DNA of 64,000 nucleotides from Deltaproteobacteria bacterium (GTDB lineage Bacteria; Myxococcota; Kuafuiibacteriia; Kuafuiibacteriales; Kuafuiibacteriaceae): NCBI GenBank assembly GCA_040218735.1, contig JAVJQW010000058.1, forward strand, positions 82,525 through 146,524, read 5' to 3'. Below are positions 33,155 through 53,269 of the stretch, in pieces. The stretch's first letter is position 1. Each line of letters starts with the position of its first letter. The position numbers and the translations under genes are program-made. Under the pieces are notes generated by a model, which ran no database searches, was not told where the DNA came from, and worked only from the letters and a program-made list of their open reading frames with translations.

Positions 33155-33207
33155 CGCACGAACTATAGTGCATGAGAATCGAGCACAGCAAGCGATATAT
33201 TGCTTGC
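33155..33207. promoter_or_regulatory. Putative BoxR operator/promoter region
   Basis: ACTATAGTGCA plus near-perfect palindrome GCAAGCGATATATTGCTTGC (33188-33207). Confidence 0.55.
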
Positions 33208-33240
33208 GTTACCCCCAGGAAACGATCTACGAAGGAGGCC

Positions 33241-34899: not shown

Positions 34900-34917
34900 G
34901 AAAGAGGAGCTGAAGAA

Positions 34918-36330
<1,413 letters not shown>

Positions 36331-38070: not shown

Positions 38071-38184
38071 CGGCGCCCTCCTCCCTGGTCTGATCCTCTA
38101 TTCGGTCAACGAATGCCTCACTTCACATCTTCCCCCTTTGCGGTGTTCGAGAAAAGCGCGGGCGTATGTGATAGACCGACATCC

Positions 38185-39258
38185 ATGGTTTCCGTGGGAT
38201 GGGCGCGCCTCGCGGCCCTCGCTGCGATCCTCGTCACGAGCGCCATCTCGACCGGGTGCGCCACGATGTTCTCCGGCAGCGAGCAGGACATCAGCCTCAA
38301 GGTCTACCCGGAGGACGCGACGACGAAGGTCGACAACGAGCCGGTGGATCCCGGCGCGCTGAAGATGACGCGGGAGAAGCAGCACATCGTCACGATCGAG
38401 AAGCCTGGCTTCGAGACGCGGCGCATCCAGATGAAGCAGGACCTCAACGGGTGGTTCTTCGCGAACATCCTGTGGGGGCCGTTCTTCTGGGTGGGCATGA
38501 TCGTCGACGCCATGACCGGCAGCCTCTACGAGCTGTCGCCGTCGAACGTCACCGTGACGCTGGATCCGGAGGGCAGCCGCCCGGCGGTGGCCTCGTCGCC
38601 CCCGCCGCCGCCGCCTTCGAGCGGGATCTCGTTCGTGACGCCGGGGTCCGGGCCGTCCCTCGACCCGACGGTCAATCAACGCGGGACGGGGATGAACAAG
38701 AAGTCGCCGCCGCCTCCGCCGCCGCCCAAGGCCGATGCGCCGCCCCCCCCGAGCTCGCCGCCGCCCCCCGCGGCGCCGGAGCGCAAGCGCCCGCCGCGAA
38801 CGATGGCCAACGCGACGCAGCAGTCGTGGGTGCTGGCGGTGATGGACTCGCAGATGTCGAGCTCGCAGCGCACGTTCACGAAGGAGACGCTGGTCGCGCT
38901 GACGGATCAGATCCGCGTGTTCCTGGCGTCGCGCGGGATGCGCGTCGTGGACCGCAGCTCGCAGGAGCGGGCGCTCCAGTCGATCGTCGCCGAGGAGAAG
39001 AAGAACAGCTACAAGACCTGCGTCGACTCCAGCTGCCAGATCCCCCTCGGCAAGGCCCTCGCCGCGACCCACATCATGCGCTCCTCGGTCGCCAAGTTCG
39101 GGAACGCCTGCGCGACCAACGGCGAGATGATCGACCTGCGCTCCGAGGTCACCGTCGCCGCCGGCTCCGCGCGCTCCGGCTGCACCGAGGAAGACCTCCT
39201 CTACGCCGCCGAGAGCCTCGCCGAGCAGCTCGTCACCGGCTCCTCCGCCGCCAAGTAG
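38185..39258 (+). CDS. PEGA-like lipoprotein with Pro-rich linker
   Basis: TGCATMFSG lipobox; LNGWFFANI; C-domain CVDSSCQIPLG. Confidence 0.8.
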   Translation: MVSVGWARLAALAAILVTSAISTGCATMFSGSEQDISLKVYPEDATTKVDNEPVDPGALKMTREKQHIVTIEKPGFETRRIQMKQDLNGWFFANILWGPFFWVGMIVDAMTGSLYELSPSNVTVTLDPEGSRPAVASSPPPPPPSSGISFVTPGSGPSLDPTVNQRGTGMNKKSPPPPPPPKADAPPPPSSPPPPAAPERKRPPRTMANATQQSWVLAVMDSQMSSSQRTFTKETLVALTDQIRVFLASRGMRVVDRSSQERALQSIVAEEKKNSYKTCVDSSCQIPLGKALAATHIMRSSVAKFGNACATNGEMIDLRSEVTVAAGSARSGCTEEDLLYAAESLAEQLVTGSSAAK

Positions 39259-39483: not shown

Positions 39484-40821
39484 TTGTTGCGGCGAGCTCG
39501 CTCAGCAGTGCGCCTCGCGTTGGTGGTGGCGTTCTTCGCGCTGCCCTCGTCGGCGCGCGCGGACCTCTTCCTCCCGGTGGGGGATGGAACCGTGCAACCT
39601 GAGTTGCACCGCGGGATCATCCTCGACAGCGGCCGCGTCGAGACGTTGCTCTTCGAGCTGCGTGTGCGCTCGTCCTCGTCGCGCTTCGTCTGGCTGCGTC
39701 CGTTCGAGAACGAGCCGAAGGAGGTCGAGGTGCCCGAGGCCCCCTTCGCCTTCCTCGACCGCGCCACGACCATCCACGCCCCCTACAACGAGCTGATCCG
39801 CGACGACCTCTTCGGCCCCTCCGTCGTCTCCGTCCTGATCGACCGCCTCTTCCGCGGCCCGCCGCCGCCGCCGCCCCCGCCGGACGTCGACGCCCGCAGC
39901 CTCCAGATCGAGAGCACGCGGCTCCTCACCGGGCAGGTCACGAGCTCCACGATCACCTACGAGCTCATCCTCCCGGAGTCCGTCGACACGTACCTTCGCA
40001 CCCAAGGCGTCGAGCTCGACCAGGAGCAGATCCGCGCGATCGCGGTGACGCTCAACTCCGGCGGCGTCCTGATGGCGAGCGTCGTCGAGGACGCCGCGCC
40101 CAACGAGGACCGCCCCGCGCGCCTCGGGCCGCTCGCCTTCGCGTACGCGCCGGGCCACCCCGCGTACCCGCTCGTCCAGCGCTCCGGTCGCAACGTCAAC
40201 GCGCAGCGCTTCGACCTCTACCTGATCTCCTCCGTCGCGCGCGTCTCGAGCGCCCACGAGACGGTCTGGGACGTGCGCCCCTGGGAGCACCTCGAGGCGC
40301 CCGCCGACCAGTTCATCGTCCGCTACAACGCCCCGATCGAGCACAGCAGCCCGATCGGCGTCGAGCTGCTGGAGCGCCAGTCCCTCAACGTCCCATCGGG
40401 CGGGCGCCTGATGAGGATGCAGTACGACAGCCCCGACACCCGCATCGCGACGATGACGTTCGTCGAGGCGCGCAACCCCGTCGAAATCCCGTCCGGCACG
40501 CAGCGCGGCACCGGGTTCGACCTCTTCCTCTGCATCCTCCTCGGCCTCGCGCCGCTCCTGTACACGCCCGAGTCGTGGTTCCTGCTCTGGTTCGCGAGCC
40601 GGGCCCGCGCGCGCGCGCGGGAGCGAGGGAAGGCCTTCGGCGTCCGCCTGTGGTCCTTCTACGCCATCGCCGTGGGTGTGTACTGGCTGGTCGTGCTGCC
40701 GGACGCCGCGCGCGTCGCGGGCGTCGTCCCGCTGTTGATCGGGATCGTTCAGATCGCCCTGCCCTACACCGAGCGGGATCCCAACCCCGTCCGCGCGCAG
40801 TTCAAGAAGAAGAAGAAGTAG
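39484..40821 (+). CDS. Secreted/membrane protein, DUF2330-like
   Basis: Signal peptide; FVWLRP...F.FLDRAT; YLR..G; C-terminal TMs. Confidence 0.65.
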   Translation: MLRRARSAVRLALVVAFFALPSSARADLFLPVGDGTVQPELHRGIILDSGRVETLLFELRVRSSSSRFVWLRPFENEPKEVEVPEAPFAFLDRATTIHAPYNELIRDDLFGPSVVSVLIDRLFRGPPPPPPPPDVDARSLQIESTRLLTGQVTSSTITYELILPESVDTYLRTQGVELDQEQIRAIAVTLNSGGVLMASVVEDAAPNEDRPARLGPLAFAYAPGHPAYPLVQRSGRNVNAQRFDLYLISSVARVSSAHETVWDVRPWEHLEAPADQFIVRYNAPIEHSSPIGVELLERQSLNVPSGGRLMRMQYDSPDTRIATMTFVEARNPVEIPSGTQRGTGFDLFLCILLGLAPLLYTPESWFLLWFASRARARARERGKAFGVRLWSFYAIAVGVYWLVVLPDAARVAGVVPLLIGIVQIALPYTERDPNPVRAQFKKKKK

Positions 40822-40866: not shown

Positions 40867-42105
40867 TTGGCCGATCCCGGCATTCGGGGACAACTGGCGA
40901 CGTTGGTTTCGAACGTCTCCATCCGTGGCTTCGAACCGGCCCACCTCCCCGTCGAACCTCGCTTTCGCCCGCGCTCCGACGCGACGGGCCTGCGCGCGTT
41001 CGTCCGCCGCGTCGTCGACGAGCGGAACCTCTACGGCAACCTCGCCTTCGCCGAGACCTGCGAGAGCCTCGCGCTGATCCACCGCGCGCTCCCGGTCGGT
41101 CCCAAGGATCGCGTCGCCGGGGTGACGTCGAGCGGCGACGTCCTCCTGTCGATGGTCGCGCGCGGCGCGAAGGTCATCGGCTTCGACGCCAACCCCGCGC
41201 AGACCGCGCTCGCCCACCTGAAGCTCGCGGCGATCCAGCAGCTCGACGTCGATGCCTACCTCGGCCTCATGGGCATCACCGACGCGCCCGATCGAACGCA
41301 GGTGTTCGACCGCGTCAGCCGCGCGATGGCGACCGCGCAGCGCGCCGCGATGTTGTCCCGCCGCGACTGGGTCGCCGACGGCGTCCTCAACCGCGGCATG
41401 ACGCACAAGATCATCCGCGCGATGGTGAAGAGCTTCGCGCGCGTCGCTCCGGCGGAGAGCCTCGACCTCTTCCTCGGTCATCGCGGCACCCCCGAGGAGC
41501 GTAGCCGCGTCTTCGACGAAGTGCTCGCGCGCCCCGTCGTTCGCCTCGCGCTCGCGCCGCTGTTGCGTCGCTTCAACTCGCAGCTGAAGTGGCTCTTCTT
41601 CCCGCACCGCATCTGCCGCGTGTCGACGGTGCCCGACGACATGATCGCCGAGTTCTTCGAGACGTTCCGCCCGTTGTTCGTGCGCGGCGCGAAGGACAAC
41701 CCGGTGCTGTGCCGCTCCGCGACGGGGCTCGTGCACCGCGAGTGGCGCACGTTCCTCTACGACGACGAGATCTTCCAGCGCGTCCGCGACGCGAAGGAGC
41801 AGATCTCGATGACCACCCGCGAGATCACCGAAGGCCTCGAGCTCCTCCCCGAGGGGTGGGCGACGGCGATCTACCTGTCGAACGTCCCGGACTACCTCAC
41901 ACCCGAGGGCCTCGACGCGCTGACCGCCGCGCTGAAACACGCCGGCGCGCCCGGCGCGCGTGTGTTGTACTTCTCGCTGTGTGACGAGGACCGGCTCGGC
42001 GAACGCGTCGGCCCGCGCCTCCCGCGCGAGGAGCACGCCGCCCTCTACGCGCAGGACAACGTGCACATCTACCCGTCGATCGAAGTGCGTAGGATCGATC
42101 GGTGA
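40867..42105 (+). CDS. BtaA/DUF3419-like SAM-dependent transferase (start uncertain)
   Basis: DRVAGVTSSGD, FDANPAQTALAHLKLAAI, YLSNVPDY. Confidence 0.85.
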   Translation: MADPGIRGQLATLVSNVSIRGFEPAHLPVEPRFRPRSDATGLRAFVRRVVDERNLYGNLAFAETCESLALIHRALPVGPKDRVAGVTSSGDVLLSMVARGAKVIGFDANPAQTALAHLKLAAIQQLDVDAYLGLMGITDAPDRTQVFDRVSRAMATAQRAAMLSRRDWVADGVLNRGMTHKIIRAMVKSFARVAPAESLDLFLGHRGTPEERSRVFDEVLARPVVRLALAPLLRRFNSQLKWLFFPHRICRVSTVPDDMIAEFFETFRPLFVRGAKDNPVLCRSATGLVHREWRTFLYDDEIFQRVRDAKEQISMTTREITEGLELLPEGWATAIYLSNVPDYLTPEGLDALTAALKHAGAPGARVLYFSLCDEDRLGERVGPRLPREEHAALYAQDNVHIYPSIEVRRIDR

Positions 42106-43442
42106 CCACGAAGCAGGTCGCGCTCGTCTCTCCGGCCCCGCGGTACTTCGGGCCACTTCGCCAGCGTCGGGATCCGTTCTCGCGCCTCCGCCGTCTGCCG
42201 CGCCTCGCGCTGCTCGCGCTGGAGTCGGTGACGCCGCCCGAGTGGGACGTCACGATCGTCGACGAGCGTGTCCAAGCGTTCGACCCCGACGCGATCGAGG
42301 CACCGATCGTCGGCATCACCACGATGACGTACATGGCGCCCCGCGCGTTCGAGATGGCGCGGCTCCTCAAGATGCGCGGCAAGACCGTGGTGCTCGGCGG
42401 TTACTTCCCGACGCTGTCGCCGAACCTCGCGCTCGCCGAGGACGCCGTCGACGCAATCGTCGTCGGTCGCGGCGAAGACGCCTGGCCGCGCCTCCTCGCC
42501 GACTTCGAAGCGGGCCGGCTCCAGTCCGTCTACGACGTCCCGTTCGGACAGGACGGCTTCAAGCTCCGCTCCTACAACCACCACCTCACCGCGCCGCGCG
42601 ACGGCTACAACGGTTGGCTCACGCAGGTGCAGGCCGGGCTCGGCTGCAAGTTCCGTTGCAGCTTCTGTGTCATCCCCGGCTTCCACCGCGACCAGGTCGC
42701 GCTGCGGGACCTCGACGATCTCGTCGACGAGGTCGCCCGCGCACCGACGCGCCGGGTGCTCTTCATCGACGACAACCTCCTCAATCGCCCCGCGTACCTT
42801 CACGCGCTGTGTGATCGTCTGCGGCCGCTCGGCAAGGAGTGGATCGCGCAGGTGTCGATGGACATCGGCACCCAACCGAAGCTCATCGAGAAGATGGCGA
42901 AGGCCGGCTGCGGCTGGCTCAACGTCGGCGTCGAGAGCATCCACAGCGCGACGCTCGACGCGCAGTCGAAGTGGCAGAACGACACGCGCCGCTACCTGAA
43001 GACCCTCGACCGCTTCCGCGACCACGGCATCAGCGTGAGCGCCGGGATGGTGCTCGGCTTCCCGACGGAGCCCCGCGACGTCTTCGACCTGACCGGTGAG
43101 TTCCTCGACAAGGCGGCGATCGACATCACCGTCTTCCACCTCTACACGCCCTACCCGGGCACCCGCGCACACGCGGAGTACGAGGCGGCGGGGCGCCTGC
43201 TGACGAACGACCTGGAGCTGTACGACACGTATCACCCGATCGTCCGCCCCGAGAACTACGACCCCGCGGAGCTCGTCGAGAAGATGGAGTGGCTCGAGGA
43301 GCGCTTCTATCGCCCGCGTCGTGTGCTCGGGCGCGCCGCGCGCGGCTTCGGGCGAGGCGGTGCGTACGGCCTCGTGCGTACGCTCGCGACGGGCGTCGAG
43401 GGTTACGTGAACCTGCGGCAGGGCCTGCCGCTGCATCCGTGA
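42102..43442 (+). CDS. B12-binding radical SAM protein
   Basis: VGIT..VVLGG cobalamin domain; GCKFRCSFC; FIDDN; GVES; TPYPGT. Confidence 0.93.
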   Translation: MTTKQVALVSPAPRYFGPLRQRRDPFSRLRRLPRLALLALESVTPPEWDVTIVDERVQAFDPDAIEAPIVGITTMTYMAPRAFEMARLLKMRGKTVVLGGYFPTLSPNLALAEDAVDAIVVGRGEDAWPRLLADFEAGRLQSVYDVPFGQDGFKLRSYNHHLTAPRDGYNGWLTQVQAGLGCKFRCSFCVIPGFHRDQVALRDLDDLVDEVARAPTRRVLFIDDNLLNRPAYLHALCDRLRPLGKEWIAQVSMDIGTQPKLIEKMAKAGCGWLNVGVESIHSATLDAQSKWQNDTRRYLKTLDRFRDHGISVSAGMVLGFPTEPRDVFDLTGEFLDKAAIDITVFHLYTPYPGTRAHAEYEAAGRLLTNDLELYDTYHPIVRPENYDPAELVEKMEWLEERFYRPRRVLGRAARGFGRGGAYGLVRTLATGVEGYVNLRQGLPLHP

Positions 43443-43470
43443 GCGCGCGCGACCGCCGGAGATCTGTCTG

Positions 43471-44634
43471 ATGCGGATCCGAAGTGGGTTGTCGACCGTC
43501 GCGAGCCTCCGCCTCGCGCCGGTGCACGCGGGCGTCTCCGACGACCTCGAAGTGCTCATGTCGGCGGTGGGCTCGATCCCCGGTCGACGTTACCTGTGCC
43601 TCTCCGCCCACGGCGCCGGTGAAGCCGCGCTCTGCCTCGCCGCGGCTGGCGCCGATCAGGTCCTCGCATTCGACGTCGGCGATACGAGCGCGCTCGAACA
43701 CCTCGTCACCTTGAAGCTCACGGCGGCGCACCTCTTCGGCCGTGAGGACTACCTCGCGTTGATGGGTTTGCGCGCGGCGTCGCGGTTGAGGCGCGTCGCG
43801 CTCGTCGACCAGCTCCTGCGCGGGCTCCCCGGGCACGAGCAACCGTACTGGCGCGCGCGTCGTCGGCTGCTGCTGAACGGCCTCTTCCGCGCGGACCGCG
43901 TCGGGCTGTTCTTCGAAGGATTCCTCGCTGCGTTGCGGGTGCTCGGTTCGCGGGCGACCGTCGACGCGATCCTCTTCGGCGCCACCGAGGTGGATCGGCT
44001 CGACGCCTTCCGTTCGATCGCGGATCGCTCCTGGCTGCGCGGCGCGCTGGCCCGGGTCGGGGAACGCGTGAACCTGTTCTTCCCGGACGCGGAGTGGTCG
44101 GCGTCCGAGTATCCGAAGGCCTTCAACCGCGATCCGCTCGCGTACCTCGAGCGCCTCGTCGCGGCCGGCCTCGGCGACAACCCGCTGTTCGCGCACCACG
44201 TCCGCGGCGGCGCCACGCTCACGGAGGCGCTGCTCCCGCCGCACCTCCGTCCGGTCGTCTACGACGGCCTGCGCGGCGCGGCGCCGCGGGTTCGTGTGGT
44301 GCGTACGGCGTTCGAGCGCTACGAGGTCCCGGCGCCGGCGTCCGGCGCGTACCTGTCGAACACGATCGACTTCCTCCACGCGGCGGAGCGCGTGGCCCTA
44401 TTCGCGGCCCTCCACGAACGCCTCGAACCGGGCGCGCCGGTGCTGGTCTATTCGAACGAAGACTTCGACAAGGTACCTGACGACGGGCGATTCACGCAGG
44501 ACGTCGACGCTTCGGAGCGTCTGGCTCGAAAGGACCGCGCAAAGATCTACCGCCGCGTCGCGCTCTATCGTAGGTCGGGCACGCCCGCGGAGGACGACGA
44601 CGCGCGGGCGACGCGACTGAGGATCGTGGAGTGA
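43471..44634 (+). CDS. Second, divergent BtaA/DUF3419-like protein
   Basis: GAGEAAL..VLAFD..LVTLKL..YLALMG; DNP; YLSNTIDF. Confidence 0.75.
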   Translation: MRIRSGLSTVASLRLAPVHAGVSDDLEVLMSAVGSIPGRRYLCLSAHGAGEAALCLAAAGADQVLAFDVGDTSALEHLVTLKLTAAHLFGREDYLALMGLRAASRLRRVALVDQLLRGLPGHEQPYWRARRRLLLNGLFRADRVGLFFEGFLAALRVLGSRATVDAILFGATEVDRLDAFRSIADRSWLRGALARVGERVNLFFPDAEWSASEYPKAFNRDPLAYLERLVAAGLGDNPLFAHHVRGGATLTEALLPPHLRPVVYDGLRGAAPRVRVVRTAFERYEVPAPASGAYLSNTIDFLHAAERVALFAALHERLEPGAPVLVYSNEDFDKVPDDGRFTQDVDASERLARKDRAKIYRRVALYRRSGTPAEDDDARATRLRIVE

Positions 44635-46934
44635 CCGTGTTTCGGGGGCAGGACTACTCGCGCTTCGTCGCGAGGATCGCGGAGCGTTGCATCGAGCGCC
44701 CGTTTCGCACGCTCGCGATCGCGTTCGTCATCCTCGCCCTCGCGGTGCTGAGCGCGCTCCGGCTGCAGATCGATCCGAGCCCCGAGGCCTACCTCGAAGG
44801 CACCGAGGCCTGGGACTTCTACCGGACGATCGACGAGCGCTACGAGATCGGCGAGACGGTCGTGGTCGCGCTGCGCGAGCGGGGCGGCACGGTGTTCGAC
44901 GTCGAGACCGTCACCGCCGTCGCCGAGCTCGACCGCGTGCTCACGCAGATGTCGGAGGTCGAGCGGGTCCTGTCGCTCGCCACCGCGACGACGCTGGAGC
45001 GCAAGGGCGACGTCATCGACCTCAGCCCGATCCTCGACTCCGACCACGTCACGCAGGGCAGCGCGCTCGACCTCGGCGATCGCATCGCCAAACACGCCGT
45101 CTACAGCCAGGTGCTCGTCGACCGGCGCCACGAGACCACCTTCCTGTTCGTCCAGCTCGTCACCGCCGACCGCGACCCGGTGAAGCGGCTCGAGACCGTG
45201 CGCAAGATCCGCGAGGAGGTCGAACGTTTCCGCTCCAAACATCGCACCGTTCACCTCGCCGGATCCGCGGTCACGAAGGAGGCGATCGCCGCCGGCGTCC
45301 AGCACGACACACTCCTCTTCTTCCCCGCCGCCATCGCGCTGCTCACGGTGTTGATGTGGTTCATGTTCGGCGACGTCGTGTTCAGCCTCGTCCCGCTCGG
45401 GATCGTGGGTTACGCGTCGGTGCTCGTGGTCGGCGTGCTCGCCGCGCTGGACGTGCCGATCAACATGGCGACCGCGACGGTGCCGACGATCATCCTCGTC
45501 ATCGGCCTCGCCGACAGCGTGCACTTCCTCGCCGAGCTCAAACGCCAGTACGCGCGCACCGGTGACGCCCACGCGTCGCTGCTCGCGACGGTCGAAGCGA
45601 TCGCGTTGCCGTGCCTGCTCACCACCGCGACTTCGGCGGTCGGGTTCTTTGCGCTGGTCACGAGCCGGGTCGGACCGCTGCGGCAGTTCGGGTACGCGAC
45701 GGCGATCGGTCTGCTCGTCGCGTACCTCACCTCGATGTGGCTGACGCCGGTGGTGCTGCACCTCGTGAACCGACCGAAGGGGCGTCGCACTTCCTTCCCC
45801 GCCGCGCCGCTGCTCGGGGATCGGATCGGACGCTTCGCAATGGCGGCGCGCGCGCGGCTGCCCGCCACACTCGCGGTGACCGGGTTGCTCTTCGGCGCGA
45901 GCGTCGCGGCGATGTCCGGCTTGCCGATCGACTCGGACTTCGTCGGGTACCTCGACGAGGACCACCGCCTCCGCGAGGACATCGCGATCATCGAGAAGAC
46001 ACTCGGCGGCGCCGACGTCATCGAGGTGATCCTCGACGCCGACGACACCGGCCTCTTCCGCACACCGGAAGGGCTGCAGCTCCTCGACACCCTCGGTGAC
46101 GACCTCGCGAACTTCGAGGGGGTCTCGCGGGTGTTCAGCCTCGCCGACTACCTCCGCCTCGCCAACGCGGTGATCAACGAGGTCCCCGCGGACGAGGAGG
46201 CGCCGCTCCCCGACACCACCGAGGCCATCGCGCAGCTCGAGCTGCTCGACCCCGTCGCCTTCGCGACGCTCAGTAACGACGACCAGTCGCAGGCCCGCCT
46301 GTCGATGCAGATCCGCACGCTATCGAGCGAGCAGGTGCTGCACCTCGCGGAGCTCCTGCGGCAGACCGCCGAGATCGACCTGAAGGACGCCCCGGTGCGG
46401 GCCACCTTCACCGGCCTGCCGCCGCTGTTCGCGCAGATCGTGAAGAACCTCGTGGAGGACGCCGCGGGGAGCTTCGGGATCGCGGCGCTCCTGATCTTCT
46501 TCGCGATGCTCGTGGGGCTGAAGAGCCCCACCCTTGCAGCGATCTCGATGGTACCCAACATCCTGACCGTCGGTCTGACGTTCGGGACGATGGCGCTCCT
46601 CGGCCTGTCCTTCGACACGAACAGCGCGTTCGTGGCCTGCCTGGGGATCGGGATCGCCGTCGACGACACGATCCACATCGCCGCCCGCTACCAGCGCGCC
46701 GTGGACGAGGGCGCTCCGACGCCGCAGAAGGCCCTCGCGTACGCGATTACGCACGCGGGGCACCCCGTCGTGCTCACCTCGCTGCTGCTCGCGGTGGGGT
46801 TCTCGGTGCTGTGCCTGTCGTCGTTCTCGCCGACGTTCCGAGTGGGTCTGTTGTCCGCGATTCTCGTTGGATACGCCGTCGCGCTCGACCTGCTCCTGCT
46901 GCCGGTCCTGCTGTTGGTCGTGGATCGCCGTTGA
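44631..46934 (+). CDS. MMPL/RND-family transporter
   Basis: Two TM repeats; IGLADSVH, LTTATSAVGF, GIAVDDTIH. Confidence 0.92.
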   Translation: MTVFRGQDYSRFVARIAERCIERPFRTLAIAFVILALAVLSALRLQIDPSPEAYLEGTEAWDFYRTIDERYEIGETVVVALRERGGTVFDVETVTAVAELDRVLTQMSEVERVLSLATATTLERKGDVIDLSPILDSDHVTQGSALDLGDRIAKHAVYSQVLVDRRHETTFLFVQLVTADRDPVKRLETVRKIREEVERFRSKHRTVHLAGSAVTKEAIAAGVQHDTLLFFPAAIALLTVLMWFMFGDVVFSLVPLGIVGYASVLVVGVLAALDVPINMATATVPTIILVIGLADSVHFLAELKRQYARTGDAHASLLATVEAIALPCLLTTATSAVGFFALVTSRVGPLRQFGYATAIGLLVAYLTSMWLTPVVLHLVNRPKGRRTSFPAAPLLGDRIGRFAMAARARLPATLAVTGLLFGASVAAMSGLPIDSDFVGYLDEDHRLREDIAIIEKTLGGADVIEVILDADDTGLFRTPEGLQLLDTLGDDLANFEGVSRVFSLADYLRLANAVINEVPADEEAPLPDTTEAIAQLELLDPVAFATLSNDDQSQARLSMQIRTLSSEQVLHLAELLRQTAEIDLKDAPVRATFTGLPPLFAQIVKNLVEDAAGSFGIAALLIFFAMLVGLKSPTLAAISMVPNILTVGLTFGTMALLGLSFDTNSAFVACLGIGIAVDDTIHIAARYQRAVDEGAPTPQKALAYAITHAGHPVVLTSLLLAVGFSVLCLSSFSPTFRVGLLSAILVGYAVALDLLLLPVLLLVVDRR

Positions 46935-46978: not shown

Positions 46979-47584
46979 ATGTCGAAGCGATTCGTCATCT
47001 CGATCGCCCTCGCGCTCGGTGCGTGCTCGGGCGTCGAGCCCGGCACCGAAGGCGCCGACTGCCCGAACGACAACAACTGCCGCCCGGGTCTGTTCTGCGA
47101 CGACGGCACGTGTGCGTTGCGCCCGCGCGACGCCGGCATGGTCGCGCCGCGCGACGGCGGCTTCCGCGACGCCGGTCGTGACGCGGGCCCTCGTGACGCC
47201 GGTCCTCGCGACGCCGGTCCGCGCGACGCGGGGTGCCCGGTGCCGCCGCAGCTCTCCGCGATCCAGACCGCGATCTTCGGTCGGCAACAGCAGCCCGCAT
47301 GTAACCAGCCCACGTGTCATGGCGCATCCGCCCAGGCGGGCATTCGTTTGGACACGCCCCTCGCCGAGCTGCACACCACGCTCCTCGGTCCGACCGTCGC
47401 GGGGCAGGCGCCGGAGCCGAACATCGTGGTTCCGGGAGAGCCGCAGAACTCGCGGCTGATGACGATCATCTCGAACGAGGTGCCGGGCGGCGGTGGCGGA
47501 AGGATGCCCCCCGCCAACCCGCCGCTCGACGCGTGTTCGATCGAGACGATCCGCGTGTGGATCGAAAACGGCGCCCCGCAGTGA
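46979..47584 (+). CDS. Lipoprotein with RDAG repeats and an atypical cytochrome c-like domain
   Basis: LGAC lipobox; CNQPTCH; VVPGEPQNS; RMPP; WIENGA. Confidence 0.75.
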   Translation: MSKRFVISIALALGACSGVEPGTEGADCPNDNNCRPGLFCDDGTCALRPRDAGMVAPRDGGFRDAGRDAGPRDAGPRDAGPRDAGCPVPPQLSAIQTAIFGRQQQPACNQPTCHGASAQAGIRLDTPLAELHTTLLGPTVAGQAPEPNIVVPGEPQNSRLMTIISNEVPGGGGGRMPPANPPLDACSIETIRVWIENGAPQ

Positions 47585-47587
47585 TCC

Positions 47588-48076
47588 TCACAGCGCCGCT
47601 TCGAGGCGCTTGGCCGCGATCCGGAACGTCCGTCCGAAGTACGGCCGAATGATCGGGTGCAGCGGCCGGAAGATCGGCCGCGGCGTGTACGCGATGCGCC
47701 AGTCGATTCGCGTGCCCGCGTCGGTGGCGGCGAAGCGGTAGTCTTCACCGAACGAAGTCACGAACGGGACGCTGATCGCGCTCGCGACGAAGGTCAGCCG
47801 TCGACCGCGTTCCCACCGGACGAAGTGCTCGCGCAGCCACACGTCGGCGGTTCGGTACCAGCGCACGCTCCCGGGACCGTGCGGCGCCTCCGTCTCCCAT
47901 TCGGCGTCGACGAAGTCCGGGAACCACTCGGACTCCAGCGCGAGGTCGGTGATCGCGTCGAACGCAGCGTAGGGATCGGCGGTGGTGTGGATGGTGTGCA
48001 CGAACGCGGCAGGGGCGTCGTCGACGATGCGCGGGTGGTCGTGCGGGAGGGCGTAGACACGGCGTGGTGCGTTCAC
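47588..48076 (-). CDS. SRPBCC family protein
   Basis: EWFP...GPGSVR...EHFVRWERGRRLTF. Confidence 0.85.
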   Translation of the reverse strand: MNAPRRVYALPHDHPRIVDDAPAAFVHTIHTTADPYAAFDAITDLALESEWFPDFVDAEWETEAPHGPGSVRWYRTADVWLREHFVRWERGRRLTFVASAISVPFVTSFGEDYRFAATDAGTRIDWRIAYTPRPIFRPLHPIIRPYFGRTFRIAAKRLEAAL

Positions 48077-48113
48077 ACCGAGGTAGAGACGGGTCGCCGC
48101 GGATGTGACGGAT

Positions 48114-48686
48114 TCAGCGCAGATCGGCCTCGGCGGCGAGCCGGGCGAGCTGGAGCTTCACACGTTCGAAGCGCTTCCTCAGCGCCGCCGCGCGGCGTTT
48201 TTCATCGTCCTCGCCGGCGCCGAGGATCCGCGCGACCTCCAGCCACGACAGCGCGCGGTCGACGCGGAGGATCAGCATCTCCTGGTCCTCCGGATCGAGC
48301 TGCTCGCGGAGCCGGCGGTACGCGTCCTTCACCGTCGTCTTGCGGAACGGCGCGGTGGTGCTCCGCGCCCGCTCCACGAGCTGCGACGCAAACCGGGAGA
48401 TCGGGACGTGCTGCGGCGCCTTCTTGCGGTGGTGCCGCGCCCGCGCGTTGCGGAGCACGAGGTACAGCCAGGTCCTCAGCGACGCCCGCCCCTCGAACCC
48501 CGCGAGGCCCCGGACGACGTCCTCGCAGAACGCCGAGAAGATCTCGTGCGCGTCGTGTTCACGCTCGAGCGCGACGACGTAGCCGAGGAGCTCCGGGCCG
48601 TAGGTCTCGATGGCGAGTGACACCGCTTCGCGGACGCGGTCGTTCGCGAGGTGCGCGTGCACCGTGGTGTCGACCGACGCCTTCAT
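48114..48686 (-). CDS. ECF-type RNA polymerase sigma factor
   Basis: YGPELLG, FEGRASLRTWLY, LILRVDRALSWLEVA, LRKRFER. Confidence 0.88.
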   Translation of the reverse strand: MKASVDTTVHAHLANDRVREAVSLAIETYGPELLGYVVALEREHDAHEIFSAFCEDVVRGLAGFEGRASLRTWLYLVLRNARARHHRKKAPQHVPISRFASQLVERARSTTAPFRKTTVKDAYRRLREQLDPEDQEMLILRVDRALSWLEVARILGAGEDDEKRRAAALRKRFERVKLQLARLAAEADLR

Positions 48687-50005
48687 TCCTCGACGCGATA
48701 CAGCGCGTACGGCCCCGTCGCCTTCACGATGCGCCCGTGCGGATTCCACCAGCGCGATGTGCGGATGTACAGCGTGTCCTCGTCGTACATCTCGAGCTCG
48801 ATCTCCCCGCGGTTGCGGCAGCACCAGCCCTCTTCGTCCGTGACCCGCGCGTGGAAGACGTACCCGTACTCCCGCGCCTCGACCGTCACGGCGCCGGAGT
48901 TCCTGAAGAACGCGTGCGACGGCACTCGGACGCGTTCGTCCTGCACCTCGAGCCAGCGGTATCCACCGGCCGGGTCCTTCGTGATCTGCAATGAGCCGAC
49001 GTGTCCGCCCTGGCTCCGCCAGCGTCCGACGATGGCGTCGAGGTCGTCGTCGTTCGGGCCGCGCGACTGCCACCACACGAAGCTCCACGTCATCGCGACG
49101 ATCGCCGTCACCGCGGCGAGGCTCTGCACCAAGGAGCGCCGACGTCGCCGTCGTCGGAGCGCGTTGAGCGAACGGCGAACCTCCTCGATCGCTTCACCGA
49201 GCGCGCCGCCATCTTCGAACCGATCCTCGGACCGCGCCGCGAGCGCGGCGTCGAAGAGCGTCTGGAGCCGAGGCGACTGCCGCACGAGATCGAACGGGAG
49301 GTTCGGCGCCGCTAGCTCGGGGGACGGCGCGCGGAACGGGAGGGTGCCGACGAGGCAGAGGTAGAGCAGCGTGCCCGCCGCGAAGACGTCGGTCGCGGGT
49401 CCGGTGGTGTCGCCGGCGAGCTGCTCCGGCGCCATGAACCCCGGCGTGCCGCCGGTGTGTACGGAGTCGGCGACGCCCGATGCGAGGCCGAAGTCGAGGA
49501 GCTTTGTCGGGCCGTCTTCGGTGAGGAAGACGTTGCGCGGGTTGAGGTCGTGGTGGGTCACGCCGAGTGCGTGGGCGTGGGCGAGCGCGGCGGCGATGTC
49601 GGCGCCGATCGCCAGCGCGTCGTCGAGCGCCAGGGATCCACGTTCGAGGCGGTCCGCGAGGGTCTCGCCGCGGAGCAGCTCGAGCACGAGCACGGTGCGG
49701 TCCTCGTGCCGGCACACTTGGTAGAGCGTGACGACGTTCGGGTGGTTGAGGCGCGCGGTGTGCTGGGCTTCGGACTCGGGGAGCTCGTCGACGGCGCGGC
49801 GGACGACCTTGAGCGCGACGTCGCGTCCGAGCACGAGGTCGCGCGCGCGGTAGACGGTGCCCATCCCGCCGGTACCGACCTTGGCGTCGACGCGGAACTG
49901 CTCGGCGACGACGGTGCCGGCTTCGAGGCCGAGGTCGACGGCGTCGAGCGCCACGGACGGGGCGGCGGCGACGAGCTCGAGGAGTTTGTCGAGGTCGTGG
50001 GCCAC
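48683..50005 (-). CDS. Ser/Thr protein kinase with TM and extracellular domain
   Basis: GTGGMG, ALK, HHDLNPRN, DFG, GTPGFMAPE; ATGA-coupled to the sigma factor. Confidence 0.9.
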   Translation of the reverse strand: MAHDLDKLLELVAAAPSVALDAVDLGLEAGTVVAEQFRVDAKVGTGGMGTVYRARDLVLGRDVALKVVRRAVDELPESEAQHTARLNHPNVVTLYQVCRHEDRTVLVLELLRGETLADRLERGSLALDDALAIGADIAAALAHAHALGVTHHDLNPRNVFLTEDGPTKLLDFGLASGVADSVHTGGTPGFMAPEQLAGDTTGPATDVFAAGTLLYLCLVGTLPFRAPSPELAAPNLPFDLVRQSPRLQTLFDAALAARSEDRFEDGGALGEAIEEVRRSLNALRRRRRRRSLVQSLAAVTAIVAMTWSFVWWQSRGPNDDDLDAIVGRWRSQGGHVGSLQITKDPAGGYRWLEVQDERVRVPSHAFFRNSGAVTVEAREYGYVFHARVTDEEGWCCRNRGEIELEMYDEDTLYIRTSRWWNPHGRIVKATGPYALYRVEE

Positions 50006-50060
50006 GGGGTCGACCTCGAGCCTAGCGGGGCTCGGGGGGGAGTCAATCGGACCGGAGGGA

Positions 50061-50954
50061 ATGCGCGCGGTGCGTGCGATGCTTCTCGATGTCGTGCCCA
50101 CCGCGCTGCTCCTGCTCGTCGCGCTGACGCCGGCGCCGACGTTCGACGCGTACGTGTCGACCGAGATCCGGCCGGCGGATGGGTTCGATCCGCCGCGCCG
50201 GGCGCGTGCGGTCGCGAACGGTCGCGTGGAGTCGGTGGAAGGCGACGTCGTGGAGATCGCGCACGTCTTCTACGAGAACCACCAGCGGCGCGCGGCGCGG
50301 TCGCGCTACGAGGGCGTGAAGGACGCCGTCGTGGAGGTCGGGGTCGAGGTGGAGCGCGGCGCAAGGCTCGGCGGTGGCACGCCGCGGGTGACGGTGGACG
50401 GCGTCGCCGCGAAGCGCTTCGCGCGGGGGCGCCGACGTCTGTTCGTCCCTCGTGACGAGCCGGTGTTGGTGCTCGTCGATCACGAGCACCACCAGGCGGC
50501 GCGTTACGAGAACGGGCGCCGCGTGTCGGTCGTCGAGGTAGAGTTCGGCCAGGCCGAGGGCACCAAGGAGGTGCAGGGCGATCTAAAGACGCCGAAGGGC
50601 ATGTACTTCGTCGTGCACAAGTACCGCGGTGAGTTCACCGGCAAGTACGGCGACTACTACGGCGGGCACTGGATCAAGCTGAGCTATCCGAACCGCTACG
50701 ACGCCGAGCGCGGCGTGGCGCAGGGGGTCGTGGACCGCGAGACGGCGAGGGGGATCTCGCGTGCGTGGCGACGCCGAAGGCTGCCGACCCAGAAGACCCG
50801 CCTCGGCGGGGGGATCGGCTTTCACGGCTGGGCGGGCGCGTGGACGAAGCGCGAAGAAGGTGGCCTGTCGTGGGGGTGCGTGGTGATGCACAACGAGGAC
50901 ATCGCGAAGTGGTTCGACGCGATCCCGAAGGGCGCGATGGTGGTGATCTTCTGA
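50061..50954 (+). CDS. L,D-transpeptidase (YkuD) family protein with M23-like N-terminus
   Basis: GDLKTPKG, LSYPN, GIGFHG, SWGCV. Confidence 0.85.
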   Translation: MRAVRAMLLDVVPTALLLLVALTPAPTFDAYVSTEIRPADGFDPPRRARAVANGRVESVEGDVVEIAHVFYENHQRRAARSRYEGVKDAVVEVGVEVERGARLGGGTPRVTVDGVAAKRFARGRRRLFVPRDEPVLVLVDHEHHQAARYENGRRVSVVEVEFGQAEGTKEVQGDLKTPKGMYFVVHKYRGEFTGKYGDYYGGHWIKLSYPNRYDAERGVAQGVVDRETARGISRAWRRRRLPTQKTRLGGGIGFHGWAGAWTKREEGGLSWGCVVMHNEDIAKWFDAIPKGAMVVIF

Positions 50955-51716: not shown

Positions 51717-53186
51717 TTAGAGCGCGCCCATCAGCGGGTCGAGGGCGAAGGAGAGGGCGGTCGAGACCATGAAGTAGCCGCCCGAGTAGTCGCCGTTGCC
51801 GACGTTGGTCAAAAAGTCCTGGCGCTCGCCTTCGAAGGCGCCGGCGATGGGTTTGGCGGAGTCGCGGATCTGGGTTCCGCTCAGGACGATGTAGGCGCCG
51901 GAGACGTCGAGCGTGAAGCCGAAGAACGTGGTGCGCGCGCCGAGGGAGAAGCCGTGTTTGTCGAAGTCCGTGCGCGACGGATCGACGAACGCCGACGGGA
52001 TGGCGGTCGGCTCGTAGAAGTAGCCGCCGACGACGTTCACGAGCGGGTCGAACAGGTTGAGCTCGCCGCCGAGGCGGAGGGAGTACGTGTTCCGCCAGTT
52101 GCGGGGCGAGCGGATGACGCCGAGGGGCGACGGGTTGCCGAGGACCTCGAGCTCGATGTCGATCGGCGTGATGACGACCTCGTCCTGCACGCCCCAGCCC
52201 TCCCAGACCACGGCGGCCTCGGCGGCGAAGACGTGCGGCAGGCGGTACTGCACGCCGGCGCGGAAGATGGGCGCGTTCTCGAGCTGGACGCGGACCTTGC
52301 TGCCGTTGACGACGAGGAGCGGCGGGTCGGCGTCGATGACGGCGCTCGGGACCTGCACGTCGATCGTGCCTTCGGTGTCGATCGGGCGCGAGCCGCGGAA
52401 CGACGAGCCGATCGTCAGCCCCGGGAGCAGCTCGTAGCTCGCGCCGACGGACCAGTTGATCGCGTAGTCGTTGAAGGCGAGGAGGACGGGGGCGTCGTAG
52501 TTGGCGTCTTCCGGGCCCTGAATGCCGAGCAGATCCGAGTTCGCCCACAGGTGCAGCGTCTGGTCGTTGCCGGCCTGCGACAGCATGACCGACGCGCCGA
52601 TGCGCAGACCGTCGATCGGCTGCGCGGCGACGGCGGCGGCGAAGTTCGCTTCGATGTTCGCCATGCGCATCCCGCTGTAGCGGCCGGGCTGGCCGGCGGC
52701 GCTCGTCGCGAAGTCGGGGCGGCGTGTGCTGACGACTTCACCCCAGTCGTGCCGACCGCTGTTCGGGCCCCACGCGGCGACGCCGAAGGTGAGGTCGTAG
52801 AACGGCAGCCCGTAGGAGGCGCCGACGAACGGGATGACGAGCGTCGTGTTGCTCGACACGACGTTGTCGTCGAAGGAGCTCTGCAGCTCGGCGTCCCACT
52901 CCGCCGCGGTGCGGCCGTCCGCGCTGTCGGCGATCAGGCAGGGGCACTTGCGGTTGAAGTCGAGCCCCATGTTCACGAACGTGACCGACGCTTCCGCGTT
53001 GAGGCCCTGCAGCTGCGAGAGGCCGGCGGGGTTGTAGTGGATCGACAGCAGGCTGTCGGGCGAGGCGACGAACGCACCGCCGCGCGCCATGCCGCGCGTG
53101 CCGATGTCTCCGAGGTAGAAGCCGCCCGCGTGGGCGGTCGAGGCGAGGAGCGCCGAGGCGGCGACGAACGCGGGAACGAATCGCAT
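51717..53186 (-). CDS. FadL/OmpP1-family outer membrane transporter
   Basis: AHAGGFY...MARGGAFVA...YNPAGL; WRNTYSLRLG. Confidence 0.9.
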   Translation of the reverse strand: MRFVPAFVAASALLASTAHAGGFYLGDIGTRGMARGGAFVASPDSLLSIHYNPAGLSQLQGLNAEASVTFVNMGLDFNRKCPCLIADSADGRTAAEWDAELQSSFDDNVVSSNTTLVIPFVGASYGLPFYDLTFGVAAWGPNSGRHDWGEVVSTRRPDFATSAAGQPGRYSGMRMANIEANFAAAVAAQPIDGLRIGASVMLSQAGNDQTLHLWANSDLLGIQGPEDANYDAPVLLAFNDYAINWSVGASYELLPGLTIGSSFRGSRPIDTEGTIDVQVPSAVIDADPPLLVVNGSKVRVQLENAPIFRAGVQYRLPHVFAAEAAVVWEGWGVQDEVVITPIDIELEVLGNPSPLGVIRSPRNWRNTYSLRLGGELNLFDPLVNVVGGYFYEPTAIPSAFVDPSRTDFDKHGFSLGARTTFFGFTLDVSGAYIVLSGTQIRDSAKPIAGAFEGERQDFLTNVGNGDYSGGYFMVSTALSFALDPLMGAL

Positions 53187-53269
53187 CTCTCGCACGTCGT
53201 CCCACATCGGATCGGCGGAGAAAAGGGCCGGTTGACCGGCGTGCGCGCGGCGACGTTCTTTGCTTCGCC

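Follow-up and report, generated by a model that had tools for sequence, protein, structure and literature searches.

Betaine and amino lipids allow microbial membranes to be built without phosphorus, and the BtaA/BtaB pathway is, to our knowledge, the only bacterial route to betaine lipids. BtaA, a member of the DUF3419 family, is described in PMC10685587 as forming diacylglyceryl-homoserine from diacylglycerol and S-adenosylmethionine (SAM). The window analysed here, a 64,000-nucleotide stretch of a marine-type myxobacterial genome, carries two divergent DUF3419 genes (DufA and DufB) separated by the gene of a radical SAM enzyme and followed by that of an RND transporter. What does such a combination make? 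A literature search found no description of a cassette of this kind. We propose, with slightly less than even confidence, that it adds a SAM-derived head group to a lipid-like acceptor, tailors it by radical chemistry and exports it, and that the product is undescribed, either a modified lipid or a lipid-like compound.

The four genes are co-directional and occupy 40867-46934 (Table 1). When the sequence is read directly, the DufA/radical SAM junction is cgGTGAcc, with the start of the second gene overlapping the stop of the first at 42102-42105. The radical SAM gene ends in TGA at 43440-43442, 28 bp before the ATG of DufB at 43471, and the RND start overlaps the DufB stop in gaGTGAcc at 44631-44634. 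The tight coupling in the original prediction, with two GTGA overlaps and a 28-bp gap, is thus borne out to the nucleotide, as are its gene identities (two DUF3419 proteins, a B12 radical SAM enzyme and an MMPL protein), which pass the Pfam cut-offs. The GC3 of the cassette genes (0.87-0.93) matches that of the adjoining genes, and DufA and DufB are the sole DUF3419 genes of the 11.6-Mb genome.

Table 1 Genes of the cassette and its flanks, with positions counted from the first nucleotide of the window
Feature	Coordinates	Strand	Description
U1	38113-39258	+	Lipoprotein-like, proline-rich linker; weak NCBIfam LEPBI_I2678 match
U2	39484-40821	+	Secreted or membrane-anchored protein; no Pfam match
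DufA (DUF3419)	40867-42105	+	412 aa ORF
B12-domain radical SAM enzyme	42102-43442	+	446 aa ORF
DufB (second DUF3419)	43471-44634	+	387 aa ORF
RND transporter, HAE3/MMPL type	44631-46934	+	767 aa ORF
Cyt	46979-47584	+	Small lipoprotein-like; PSCyt1 (planctomycete cytochrome c) PF07635, 23.9 bits, cut-off 22

The 45-bp and 28-bp gaps of the cassette leave no room for a small precursor-peptide gene. A riboswitch search of the window found none; a cobalamin riboswitch is present elsewhere in the genome, so B12 belongs to the physiology of the organism. As had been noted from the sequence, no BtaB-type class I methylase gene is found in the cassette by Pfam or NCBIfam, and within the window the cassette and its flanks have no gene of a methyltransferase family. 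At one related locus, L002, a Methyltransf_24 gene lies upstream on the opposite strand.

Both DUF3419 proteins belong to PF11899. DufA aligns to profile positions 10-380 of 385 with 97.4 bits and DufB to positions 39-384 with 52.2 bits (cut-off 28.2), whereas DUF3419 proteins of other Myxococcota reach 193-242 bits, far above either. Eight columns are invariant in an alignment of 18 proteins (eight DUF3419 proteins from other Myxococcota loci, five DufA and five DufB), and DufA and DufB retain all eight; they include the motif-I Gly, the motif-II Asp, the LK-motif Lys, the LSN/LSD Ser and the C-terminal Asp and Tyr. The NPAQT motif is missing from DufB. The two paralogues are homologous over their full length (hhalign 99.9%, 24% identity), and their hhalign scores to other DUF3419 proteins (275.6 for DufA, 212.5 for DufB) make DufB the more distant. 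The AF2 model of DufA (pLDDT 86.8) has a class I SAM-enzyme fold with a large helical insertion of roughly 175 residues. In the Atlas it matches DUF3419 clusters at TM 0.78-0.82, eukaryotic DUF3419+methyltransferase fusions included, and with VIA-align, many class I methyltransferases as well as MccD match it at Z 14-17. We propose DufA to be a putative SAM-dependent alkyl (3-amino-3-carboxypropyl) transferase and DufB a putative second SAM-dependent transferase, acting by N-methylation or by a second alkyl transfer.

How far the comparison with BtaA reaches can be judged from gene context. DUF3419 genes are found in at least three other contexts, none with btaB. One combines UbiA with a PPDK-like protein and an AMP-binding enzyme, and another KAS III with an MBL hydrolase and a ‘CoF synthetase’. 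Of 10 other Myxococcota loci, 4 have HAE3/MMPL transporters next to DUF3419 genes of a further clade, so the link between DUF3419 and RND proteins recurs. Because these unrelated contexts lack btaB, the family is not uniformly BtaA, and with contexts this varied “BtaA-like” speaks for the family rather than for an enzyme. The original label therefore stands for both proteins as PF11899 membership; beyond that, the low scores and varied contexts qualify it. More than one function and several conserved contexts within DUF3419 also mean that automatic ‘BtaA’ annotations need caution.

The radical SAM enzyme matches PF02310 (B12-binding) with 38.8 bits, above the cut-off of 32.1, and PF04055 (Radical_SAM) with 64.7 bits. 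Its CxxxCxxC motif (C182, C186 and C189) is invariant in 25 orthologues, which have just two more invariant cysteines. All 22 NCBIfam models that it matches score far under their cut-offs, the best being BchE (67.7 vs 481.35), and it falls outside the curated B12 radical SAM subfamilies BchE, Mmp10/QCMT, ApyD, PhpK, HpnJ, HpnR, ladderane-type, AprD4, BzaD and others. Its orthologue clade comprises 37 clusters at 52% identity or more, and beyond the clade identity is at most 39%. Judged by sequence, the enzyme belongs to an undescribed subfamily with a predicted B12-binding domain, and none of the cassette enzymes falls in a curated functional subfamily.

AprD4 is a diol dehydratase that acts on a sugar-like substrate rather than a methylase, and we know of no use of cobalamin by it. 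It is also the closest solved fold (6fd2; TM 0.72, Foldseek E 1.5e-17) to the AF2 model of the radical SAM enzyme (pLDDT 86.2), followed by MgmA, CysS, TokK, OxsB, TsrM and MiaB. The methylases MgmA, CysS, TokK and TsrM align at Foldseek TM 0.58-0.68, and the N-terminal Rossmann-like domain of the model aligns with those of MgmA, TokK, CysS, OxsB and TsrM. Since the top match is a dehydratase, the structure gives no verdict on methylation; B12 use and C-methylation are predicted for this enzyme.

The RND protein matches PF03176 (MMPL) with 89.5 bits in two stretches and has further matches to PF12349 and PF02460 (sterol-sensing and Patched domains). It stays under the NCBIfam cut-offs of TIGR00921 HAE3 (208.1 vs 351.9 bits), TIGR03480 HpnN (67.3 vs 751.85) and the MmpL3 model (22.6 vs 1400), and a crude scan counts 11 hydrophobic segments. 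These matches classify it as a predicted exporter of the HAE3/HpnN/MMPL lipid type. Its gene lies 3' of DufB in five of seven loci (the window, L001, L004, L101 and L103), and the orthologues at the cassette share 50-90% identity. Three of the eight loci that reach that far have no exporter: in L002 and L102 an alpha/beta-hydrolase of the esterase/lactonase type follows DufB in place of the RND gene, and in L003, where DufB is missing, an alpha/beta-hydrolase stands directly 3' of the radical SAM gene. The predicted MMPL exporter is present here and at most of these loci but lies outside the universal core, which leaves DufA and the radical SAM gene, in most cases with DufB, as the conserved part.

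Does this core hold together elsewhere? Wherever a DufA orthologue has DNA downstream of it, at 13 distinct loci, the radical SAM gene is directly 3' of DufA. The stop and start of the two genes overlap in 11 of 12 loci checked (by 4 bp in ten and by 1 bp in one), and in 8 of 9 loci DufB comes next after the radical SAM gene. The identities of the cassette proteins drop together across loci, from 82/90/77/90% for DufA, radical SAM enzyme, DufB and RND protein in L001 to 53/71/52/63% in L101 and 51/57/46% for the first three in L002, which fits inheritance as a unit. The adjacency of DufA and the radical SAM gene is more than chance, and the core is kept across divergent lineages, which rules out a lack of co-conservation. 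Locus labels span phyla: Myxococcota-type, a ‘Thermodesulfobacteriota’ MAG and a Steroidobacter MAG. The cassette is rare all the same. Orthologues turned up in 2 of the 400 other genomes sampled across the phylum; within the family the figure is 2 of 19. A DufA search of 1.84 billion entries returned six representatives at E ≤ 1e-30, and the DufA orthologues form about 50 clusters. Such a rare and patchy spread is equally typical of specialised metabolism and of membrane-lipid synthesis. In L004, DufA and the radical SAM gene are each split by frameshifts, which reflect either assembly errors or decay.

From the gene identities, folds, conserved order and coupling, rarity and absence of a btaB-type gene from the cassette, we infer a four-step model. 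DufA, the radical SAM enzyme and DufB would be co-translated, and together would build a polar group from SAM on a hydrophobic acceptor and tailor it there; a glycerolipid is the likeliest acceptor. DufA, acting in a BtaA-like manner, would move the 3-amino-3-carboxypropyl group of SAM onto a lipid hydroxyl to give a homoserine-ether lipid. The radical SAM enzyme would then alter an unactivated carbon of this product, most probably by cobalamin-mediated C-methylation, with radical rearrangement or dehydration as alternatives. DufB, a derived paralogue in which the SAM-site residues are kept, would carry out a second SAM-dependent transfer, which may be an N-methylation that replaces the missing BtaB or a second alkylation. 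Finally, the RND pump would export or flip the product, which in the Myxococcota version would be delivered to the outer envelope. A lipid product of the cassette is plausible.

A more specific version is quite improbable in our judgement: that the radical SAM enzyme performs a carbon-skeleton rearrangement or C-alkylation of the lipid homoserine made by DufA, and that DufB N-methylates the result to a DGTA-type (beta-alanine-type) lipid or to a new betaine or amino lipid. If true, it would define a new lipid-modifying branch of B12 radical SAM enzymes. PMC10685587 gives the enzyme that converts DGTS to DGTA as still unknown, so a characterised DUF3419/radical SAM pair would offer candidate chemistry for that step.

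Instead of a membrane glycerolipid, the cassette might tailor a lipophilic specialised metabolite with SAM-derived aminocarboxypropyl units, such as an amphiphilic signalling molecule, an antibiotic or a metallophore-like compound, which the RND protein would secrete and the esterases of the variant loci would release or activate. Its rare and patchy occurrence (2 of 400 other genomes of the phylum, 2 of 19 of the family, labels of three phyla) is in keeping with such a role, as are an integrase 4 kb downstream in L003, the alpha/beta-hydrolase that stands in for the RND gene in L002, L102 and L003, the diverse contexts of the DUF3419 family and the fold match of DufA to MccD, one of several tied for the top place (Z 16.4). 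However, dozens of ordinary methyltransferases share that tie, and no PKS, NRPS, adenylation or other scaffold-forming gene adjoins the cassette in the loci examined; the TubC_N-domain protein of L003 is without any other NRPS domain and has a weak transposase match. A set of three tailoring enzymes that lacks a scaffold enzyme is easier to reconcile with a substrate drawn from primary (lipid) metabolism, and we consider a specialised metabolite rather unlikely.

The other two explanations each take up one part of the cassette. With AprD4 as the best solved fold, ahead of MgmA, CysS, TokK and TsrM, and also among the few PDB sequence matches, the radical SAM enzyme could be a cobalamin-independent dehydratase or another non-methylating radical enzyme that acts on a diol or sugar (a glycan, a glycolipid head group or a free glycerol diol), with the DUF3419 proteins decorating the same moiety. 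The TM gap between AprD4 and the methylases is small, though, and the NCBIfam AprD4 model gives 30 bits against a cut-off of 500, below BchE, the Mmp10-type methylase, ApyD, PhpK and HpnJ. The PF02310 (B12-binding) match passes its cut-off, the cassette has neither an AprD3-like reductase nor a glycosyltransferase, and none of 76 more distant radical SAM loci, among them loci of Omnitrophota, has a DUF3419 gene; we take this reading of the enzyme to be a long shot. Ordinary DGTS synthesis would have DufA or DufB as a plain BtaA, a BtaB gene somewhere else in the genome, and radical SAM and RND genes that are neighbours with no functional tie. It would agree with the automatic JGI name of several orthologues, ‘S-adenosylmethionine:diacylglycerol 3-amino-3-carboxypropyl transferase’. 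We find it very hard to credit, because a radical SAM gene behind DufA in 13 of 13 loci, overlapping it in 11 of 12, is unexpected for unrelated neighbours; moreover, 8 of 9 loci maintain both paralogues, and each of the two is distant from the DUF3419 proteins found at other loci.

The reading we prefer, a cassette for a lipid-like product, can be set beside known systems. With bacterial BtaA/BtaB, algal and fungal BTA1 and the DGTS pathway, DufA and DufB have in common the PF11899 family, its invariant residues and the full-length fold, and by analogy the SAM donor and a lipid-hydroxyl acceptor are likely shared. The cassette differs from BtaA/BtaB in having two divergent paralogues rather than one enzyme and no BtaB-type class I N-methyltransferase, and in coupling a radical SAM enzyme to DufA, followed by a dedicated RND transporter or an esterase. 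HpnP, HpnR and HpnJ are B12 radical SAM enzymes of hopanoid tailoring, and HpnN is an HAE3 RND transporter. The hopanoid genes follow the logic proposed here, placing a B12-domain radical SAM enzyme for the modification of a membrane lipid next to an RND lipid transporter of the HAE3 type. In contrast, the window proteins match these models weakly (HpnJ 56 vs 578, HpnR 49 vs 650, HpnN 67 vs 752), and the locus has DUF3419 partners and no squalene-hopene cyclase or other hopanoid gene.

The N-terminal Rossmann-like B12 domain, the radical SAM barrel and CxxxCxxC recur in MgmA/QCMT, CysS, TokK, TsrM, OxsB and AprD4. Against these solved structures, of class B (cobalamin-dependent) methylases and of their non-methylating relatives OxsB and AprD4, our enzyme aligns at TM 0.58-0.72 and 13-18% identity (Foldseek); it lacks auxiliary-cluster cysteines and is shorter than TokK, CysS and OxsB. 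MccD of microcin C biosynthesis and enzymes of the spermidine synthase type transfer aminocarboxypropyl or aminopropyl groups, not methyl groups. Like DufA, they have a class I SAM-enzyme fold. The match of DufA to MccD (rmsd 2.5 over 152 residues) is confined to the Rossmann core, some 150 of the 412 DufA residues; the DUF3419 helical insertion has no counterpart, and ordinary methyltransferases match DufA equally well.

The cassette represents a second conserved gene architecture built on the DUF3419 family, in which a radical SAM enzyme and a second paralogue replace the methylase and a lipid-type exporter is often attached. For radical SAM enzymology it adds an uncharacterised subfamily whose substrate is predicted to be lipid-like, and for lipid biochemistry a compact cassette of three or four genes suited to expression and lipidomics.

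The flanking genes are conserved over shorter ranges. U2 has a signal-like N-terminal segment, three C-terminal hydrophobic segments and a proline run. A Pfam search found no match at E ≤ 1; the Atlas relates it to DUF2330 (feature score 0.94, TM 0.54), and the L101 orthologue has a sub-threshold match (E 0.0037), so U2 may be a remote DUF2330 relative. No U2 orthologue was seen in L002, L003 or L102, and orthologues of 30-71% identity lie upstream of DufA in L001, L004, L101, L103 and L105; U2 is accessory to the cassette of the Myxococcota type (‘type I’). Cyt starts 44 bp past the RND gene. In L101 and L103 no Cyt follows the RND gene, and by tblastn it is kept only in L001 (74%) and in L004 (44%, 1.4 kb further downstream). 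The synteny of U1 is limited to close relatives, and the gene is probably outside the functional core. Its orthologues are 82% identical in L001 and 60% over 135 aa in L105, where the protein has a PEGA domain.

The cassette consists of DufA and DufB, two divergent DUF3419 (BtaA-family) paralogues, a radical SAM enzyme with a B12-binding domain encoded between them, and an RND transporter at the 3' end. The original prediction of four tightly coupled genes is confirmed in full for coordinates, gene identities and junctions, since the ORFs, their GC3 (0.87-0.93, high as in real genes), the Pfam assignments and the junctions read from the sequence (GTGA overlaps at the first and third, and 28 bp between the genes at the second) all agree. 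The window is part of contig C45 of an 11.6-Mb genome with ~70% GC, whose nearest database relatives are labelled as Myxococcota or 'Deltaproteobacteria' MAGs. DufA and DufB are the only DUF3419 genes in the whole genome.

Features of the cassette and its surroundings (window coordinates)
Feature	Position	Strand	Length	Domains and remarks
Ser/Thr protein kinase	25857-28109	+
Enoyl-CoA hydratase-family protein, then PaaA_PaaC-type di-iron protein	33172-36330	+	575 aa; 470 aa
U1 (upstream ORF)	38113-39258			Synteny in close relatives only
U2 (upstream ORF)	39484-40821			Signal-like N-terminus, three C-terminal hydrophobic segments
DufA	40867-42105	+	412 aa	PF11899 (DUF3419), 97.4 bits (Pfam)
Radical SAM enzyme	42102-43442	+	446 aa	PF02310 B12-binding and PF04055 Radical_SAM (Pfam)
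DufB	43471-44634	+	387 aa	PF11899 (DUF3419), 52.2 bits (Pfam)
RND transporter	44631-46934	+	767 aa	MMPL, sterol-sensing and Patched domains (Pfam)
PSCyt1-domain lipoprotein	46979-47584			Synteny in close relatives only
SRPBCC/polyketide-cyclase-type lipid-binding gene	47588-48157	-		Syntenic in L001 (closest relative) only
Ser/Thr protein kinase	48683-50101	-
FadL/TodX-type porin (outer-membrane channel)	51717-53207	-		Syntenic in none of the loci

To analyze the conservation of this gene order, relatives were collected from a genome-collection scan with the radical SAM orthologue alignment (80 loci), a metagenome scan with the DufA alignment (16 loci) and a DufA search of 400 other genomes in the phylum. 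After merging of duplicates (L082 with L001; L083 and L099 with L004; L081 with the window), 14 distinct loci carried a DufA orthologue of at least 43% identity, one of which, L108, ends within DufA. Every carrier recovered is a MAG or a metagenome contig. Their phylum labels differ: besides Myxococcota-type loci there are a MAG labelled 'Thermodesulfobacteriota' and a Steroidobacter MAG, which has an integrase close by. With L108 left out, the radical SAM gene lies directly 3' of DufA in 13 of 13 loci. DufB comes next in all but one of the nine loci with DNA past the radical SAM gene; the exception is L003, where an alpha/beta-hydrolase of the esterase/lactonase type directly follows the radical SAM gene. 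The RND gene follows DufB in five of the seven loci with DNA beyond it (the window, L001, L004, L101 and L103), and a hydrolase of the same type takes this position in L002 and L102. Of 12 loci checked, 10 have a 4-bp overlap (ATGA or GTGA) between the stop codon of DufA and the start codon of the radical SAM gene, one has a 1-bp overlap, and L109 has an 18-bp gap; L004 is excluded from this count because of frameshifts. Identities to the window's DufA, radical SAM enzyme, DufB and RND transporter are 82/90/77/90% for L001 and 53/71/52/63% for L101, and those of the first three are 51/57/46% for L002. This parallel fall fits inheritance of the cassette as one unit.

These counts define the conserved core as DufA and the radical SAM enzyme, nearly always with DufB. 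Co-conservation of the cluster thus held for these three genes and only in part for the exporter, which is replaced by an esterase elsewhere; the exporter and U2, found in all six Myxococcota-type loci with upstream DNA, are parts of a Myxococcota-type variant. An apparent 864-aa fusion of DufA and the radical SAM enzyme in L103 was rejected as a GC-rich frame artefact, as the two tblastn matches lie in different frames. At positions 6869-9335 of L004 (G068:C99), tblastn segments spread DufA over two frames and the radical SAM enzyme over three, and the phylum-genome search likewise found DufA in two open frames; these frameshifts are either assembly indel errors or signs of a decaying cassette copy.

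The cassette is rare. Orthologue-level DufA (E ≤ 1e-90) was found in 2 of the 400 other genomes of the phylum, one from the same genus and one from the same family, and in 2 of 19 genomes of the family. Among 5.8 billion collected proteins, 37 near-full-length clusters are orthologous to the radical SAM enzyme with identities of at least 52%, and the next reach at most 39%; DufA clusters at 45% identity or more number about 50, and DufB clusters 26. An exhaustive HMMER search of 1.84 billion representatives returned 677 DufA relatives at E ≤ 1e-3 and six at E ≤ 1e-30; the intermediate relatives P0201 and P0202 have 37% identity. The 76 other loci with members of the broader radical SAM family all lack a DUF3419 gene (HMM from alignment A4). 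By these counts, the pairing of DUF3419 with a radical SAM gene is specific to this small clade. Full-text literature searches, subscription journals not covered, returned no paper that connects a radical SAM enzyme with DUF3419 or BtaA.

According to a passage of PMC10685587, BtaA, the one characterised DUF3419 member, moves the 3-amino-3-carboxypropyl group from SAM onto diacylglycerol, after which BtaB performs three N-methylations. Unlike the BtaA/BtaB system, the cassette contains no BtaB-type gene by Pfam and NCBIfam, as had been noted. By hhalign, the homology of the two paralogues spans their entire length (probability 99.9%, 24% identity). The hhalign score is 275.6 for DufA against other Myxococcota DUF3419 proteins, 239.6 for DufA against DufB and 212.5 for DufB against the other Myxococcota proteins, DufB being the most derived. 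A joint alignment of DufA, DufB and other DUF3419 proteins has eight invariant columns, among them the motif-I Gly, the motif-II Asp, a Lys, the LSN/LSD Ser and, C-terminally, an Asp and a Tyr. In DufA, strand 2 is followed by the retained NPAQT motif, which is lost from DufB. Because the invariant residues are retained, both proteins look like competent SAM enzymes.

The predicted DufA model (pLDDT 86.8) has a Rossmann core split by a ~175-residue helical insertion and matches ESM Atlas DUF3419 clusters with TM 0.78-0.82, eukaryotic DUF3419-methyltransferase fusions among them. Foldseek found no PDB match to the model at E ≤ 0.001, and a search of PDB sequences with DufA gave none at E ≤ 1. 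The VIA-align matches to solved structures (Z 14-17) are limited to the generic class I methyltransferase core, and the aminocarboxypropyl transferase MccD is there among many tied methyltransferases. Neither comparison of the predicted model narrows the DufA substrate. Complex prediction for DufA and DufB from alignments A2 and A3 gave run scores of 0.71, 0.00 and 0.00, which carry no weight for a heterodimer either way.

The 25 radical SAM orthologues all keep C182, C186 and C189 of the CxxxCxxC motif. Only two further cysteines are invariant, and thus an auxiliary cluster is unlikely. The B12-binding domain exceeds its Pfam cut-off, and all curated NCBIfam subfamilies were missed widely (best 67.7 bits, cut-off 481), including BchE, the Mmp10-type glutamine methylase, ApyD, PhpK, HpnJ, HpnR, the ladderane-type lipid enzyme and AprD4. 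The closest solved fold to the predicted model (pLDDT 86.2) is the radical SAM 1,2-diol dehydratase AprD4 (TM 0.72), followed by MgmA, CysS, TokK, OxsB, TsrM and MiaB (TM 0.58-0.68); the profile gave four distant matches among PDB sequences. The model indicates a class B architecture and is silent on methylation. AprD4 is not known to use cobalamin, so the use of B12 by the enzyme with this nearest fold is a prediction. A cobalamin riboswitch is present in the genome outside the window; within the window, an Rfam scan of the full length gave neither a riboswitch nor a match to any other RNA family. A promoter scan, uninformative for such a GC-rich genome, gave no sigma-70-like site and terminator-like hairpins within genes only.

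The most likely mechanism is that DufA would add the aminocarboxypropyl group of SAM to a lipid hydroxyl, and that the translationally coupled radical SAM enzyme would alter an unactivated carbon of the DufA product, most likely by C-methylation. DufB would then carry out a second SAM-dependent transfer, and the RND pump would carry the product outward. In this proposal the cassette would perform lipid head-group chemistry of the BtaA family, with BtaB replaced by a radical SAM enzyme. Tailoring of a hydrophobic molecule by SAM chemistry is quite likely; the lipid head-group reading itself is tentative, with a chance somewhat short of even. It is improbable, though tempting to speculate, that the radical SAM enzyme rearranges or C-alkylates a lipid-bound homoserine, which would let bacteria make betaine lipids that are new or of the DGTA type; according to a passage of PMC10685587, the enzyme converting DGTS to DGTA is still unknown.

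The main rival is that the cassette acts on a lipophilic specialised metabolite. Points in favour of this reading are the rarity of the cassette, its patchy spread across phyla, the loci with an esterase and the integrase near the L003 copy; however, a scaffold-forming gene is absent from every locus examined, and we consider the reading unlikely on balance, though with a real chance of being right. The AprD4 fold match brings to mind a further reading, in which the radical SAM enzyme acts like AprD4 on a diol or a sugar moiety and does not methylate; we give this little probability, and the AprD4 subfamily is among those missed. Plain DGTS synthesis, with the radical SAM gene as an unrelated neighbour, is very improbable, set beside the unbroken adjacency of the two genes. 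A RiPP reading was also tried and rejected: the tight junctions in the window are too small for a precursor-peptide ORF, and with only two invariant cysteines outside the radical SAM motif, a SPASM/twitch-type cluster is unlikely.

DUF3419 proteins scoring 193-242 bits occur in other conserved contexts, without btaB. One context (L118-L122, from genomes G066, G050, G096, G061 and G062, and L129, on the Roseinatronobacter plasmid NZ_CP121116.1) places a DUF3419 protein (PF11899, 206-242 bits) beside a UbiA-family prenyltransferase, a PPDK-like protein (PPDK_N/PEP-utilizer), an AMP-binding enzyme, an HMG-CoA reductase-APH-type kinase fusion and, in L120, a P450. No btaB-type gene was seen in these six loci, the same core recurs on the plasmid, and the context looks like an isoprenoid-linked DUF3419 lipid cluster. 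An HAE3/MMPL RND transporter lies beside DUF3419 in 4 of 10 other Myxococcota loci (L118, L119, L120 and L122); the window's transporter is of the HAE3/MMPL/HpnN type, below curated cut-offs (TIGR00921, 208 bits against 351.9). This recurrent pairing supports a hydrophobic product. In a further context (L127, Rhizobium plasmid CP041205.1; L128, Shinella oryzae NZ_CP081988.1), DUF3419 accompanies KAS III, an NAD(P) oxidoreductase, an MBL-fold hydrolase, a 'CoF synthetase' and a ~369-aa hypothetical protein. btaB is absent beside the plasmid-collection matches examined (Rhizobium, Shinella and Roseinatronobacter). DUF3419 has more than one function, and the diversity of its contexts calls for caution against a literal 'BtaA' reading.

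Among the flanking genes, U2 may be a remote DUF2330 relative, which is a lead only. The SRPBCC gene and the FadL-type porin were rejected as cassette members on synteny, and neither the kinases, which show no synteny, nor the enoyl-CoA hydratase/PaaA_PaaC pair belongs to the unit. This pair, also syntenic upstream in L004, resembles BoxC/BoxB of aerobic benzoyl-CoA degradation in size and order. Two divergent loci have large rhomboid-domain membrane proteins (515-670 aa) on the flanks of the Myxococcota-type cassette (L101, 66-2030 (-) and 9983-11530 (+); L004, 2892-4904 (-)), and none was identified beside the window cassette. No RNA runs were among the sequencing runs matched to this DNA; DNA runs with at least 0.58 of the sampled words carry sponge, aquaculture and biofloc metagenome labels, which are not habitat evidence.

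The genome encodes one more radical SAM paralogue (G000:C39:353335-354486 (-), 31.6% identity over 396 aa). Elsewhere, paralogues with 28-35% identity to the window's enzyme occur in tandem arrays of 2-5 genes, with pairs in L009-L011, L014-L019, L021, L024, L026, L028, L039 and L041. In L022 and L042, from Woeseiaceae/Gammaproteobacteria MAGs, four paralogues and two uncharacterised ORFs are joined by a GH3-family amido synthetase and an HAE3/MMPL RND transporter, and these arrays are another uncharacterised pairing of B12 radical SAM enzymes with a lipid-type exporter.
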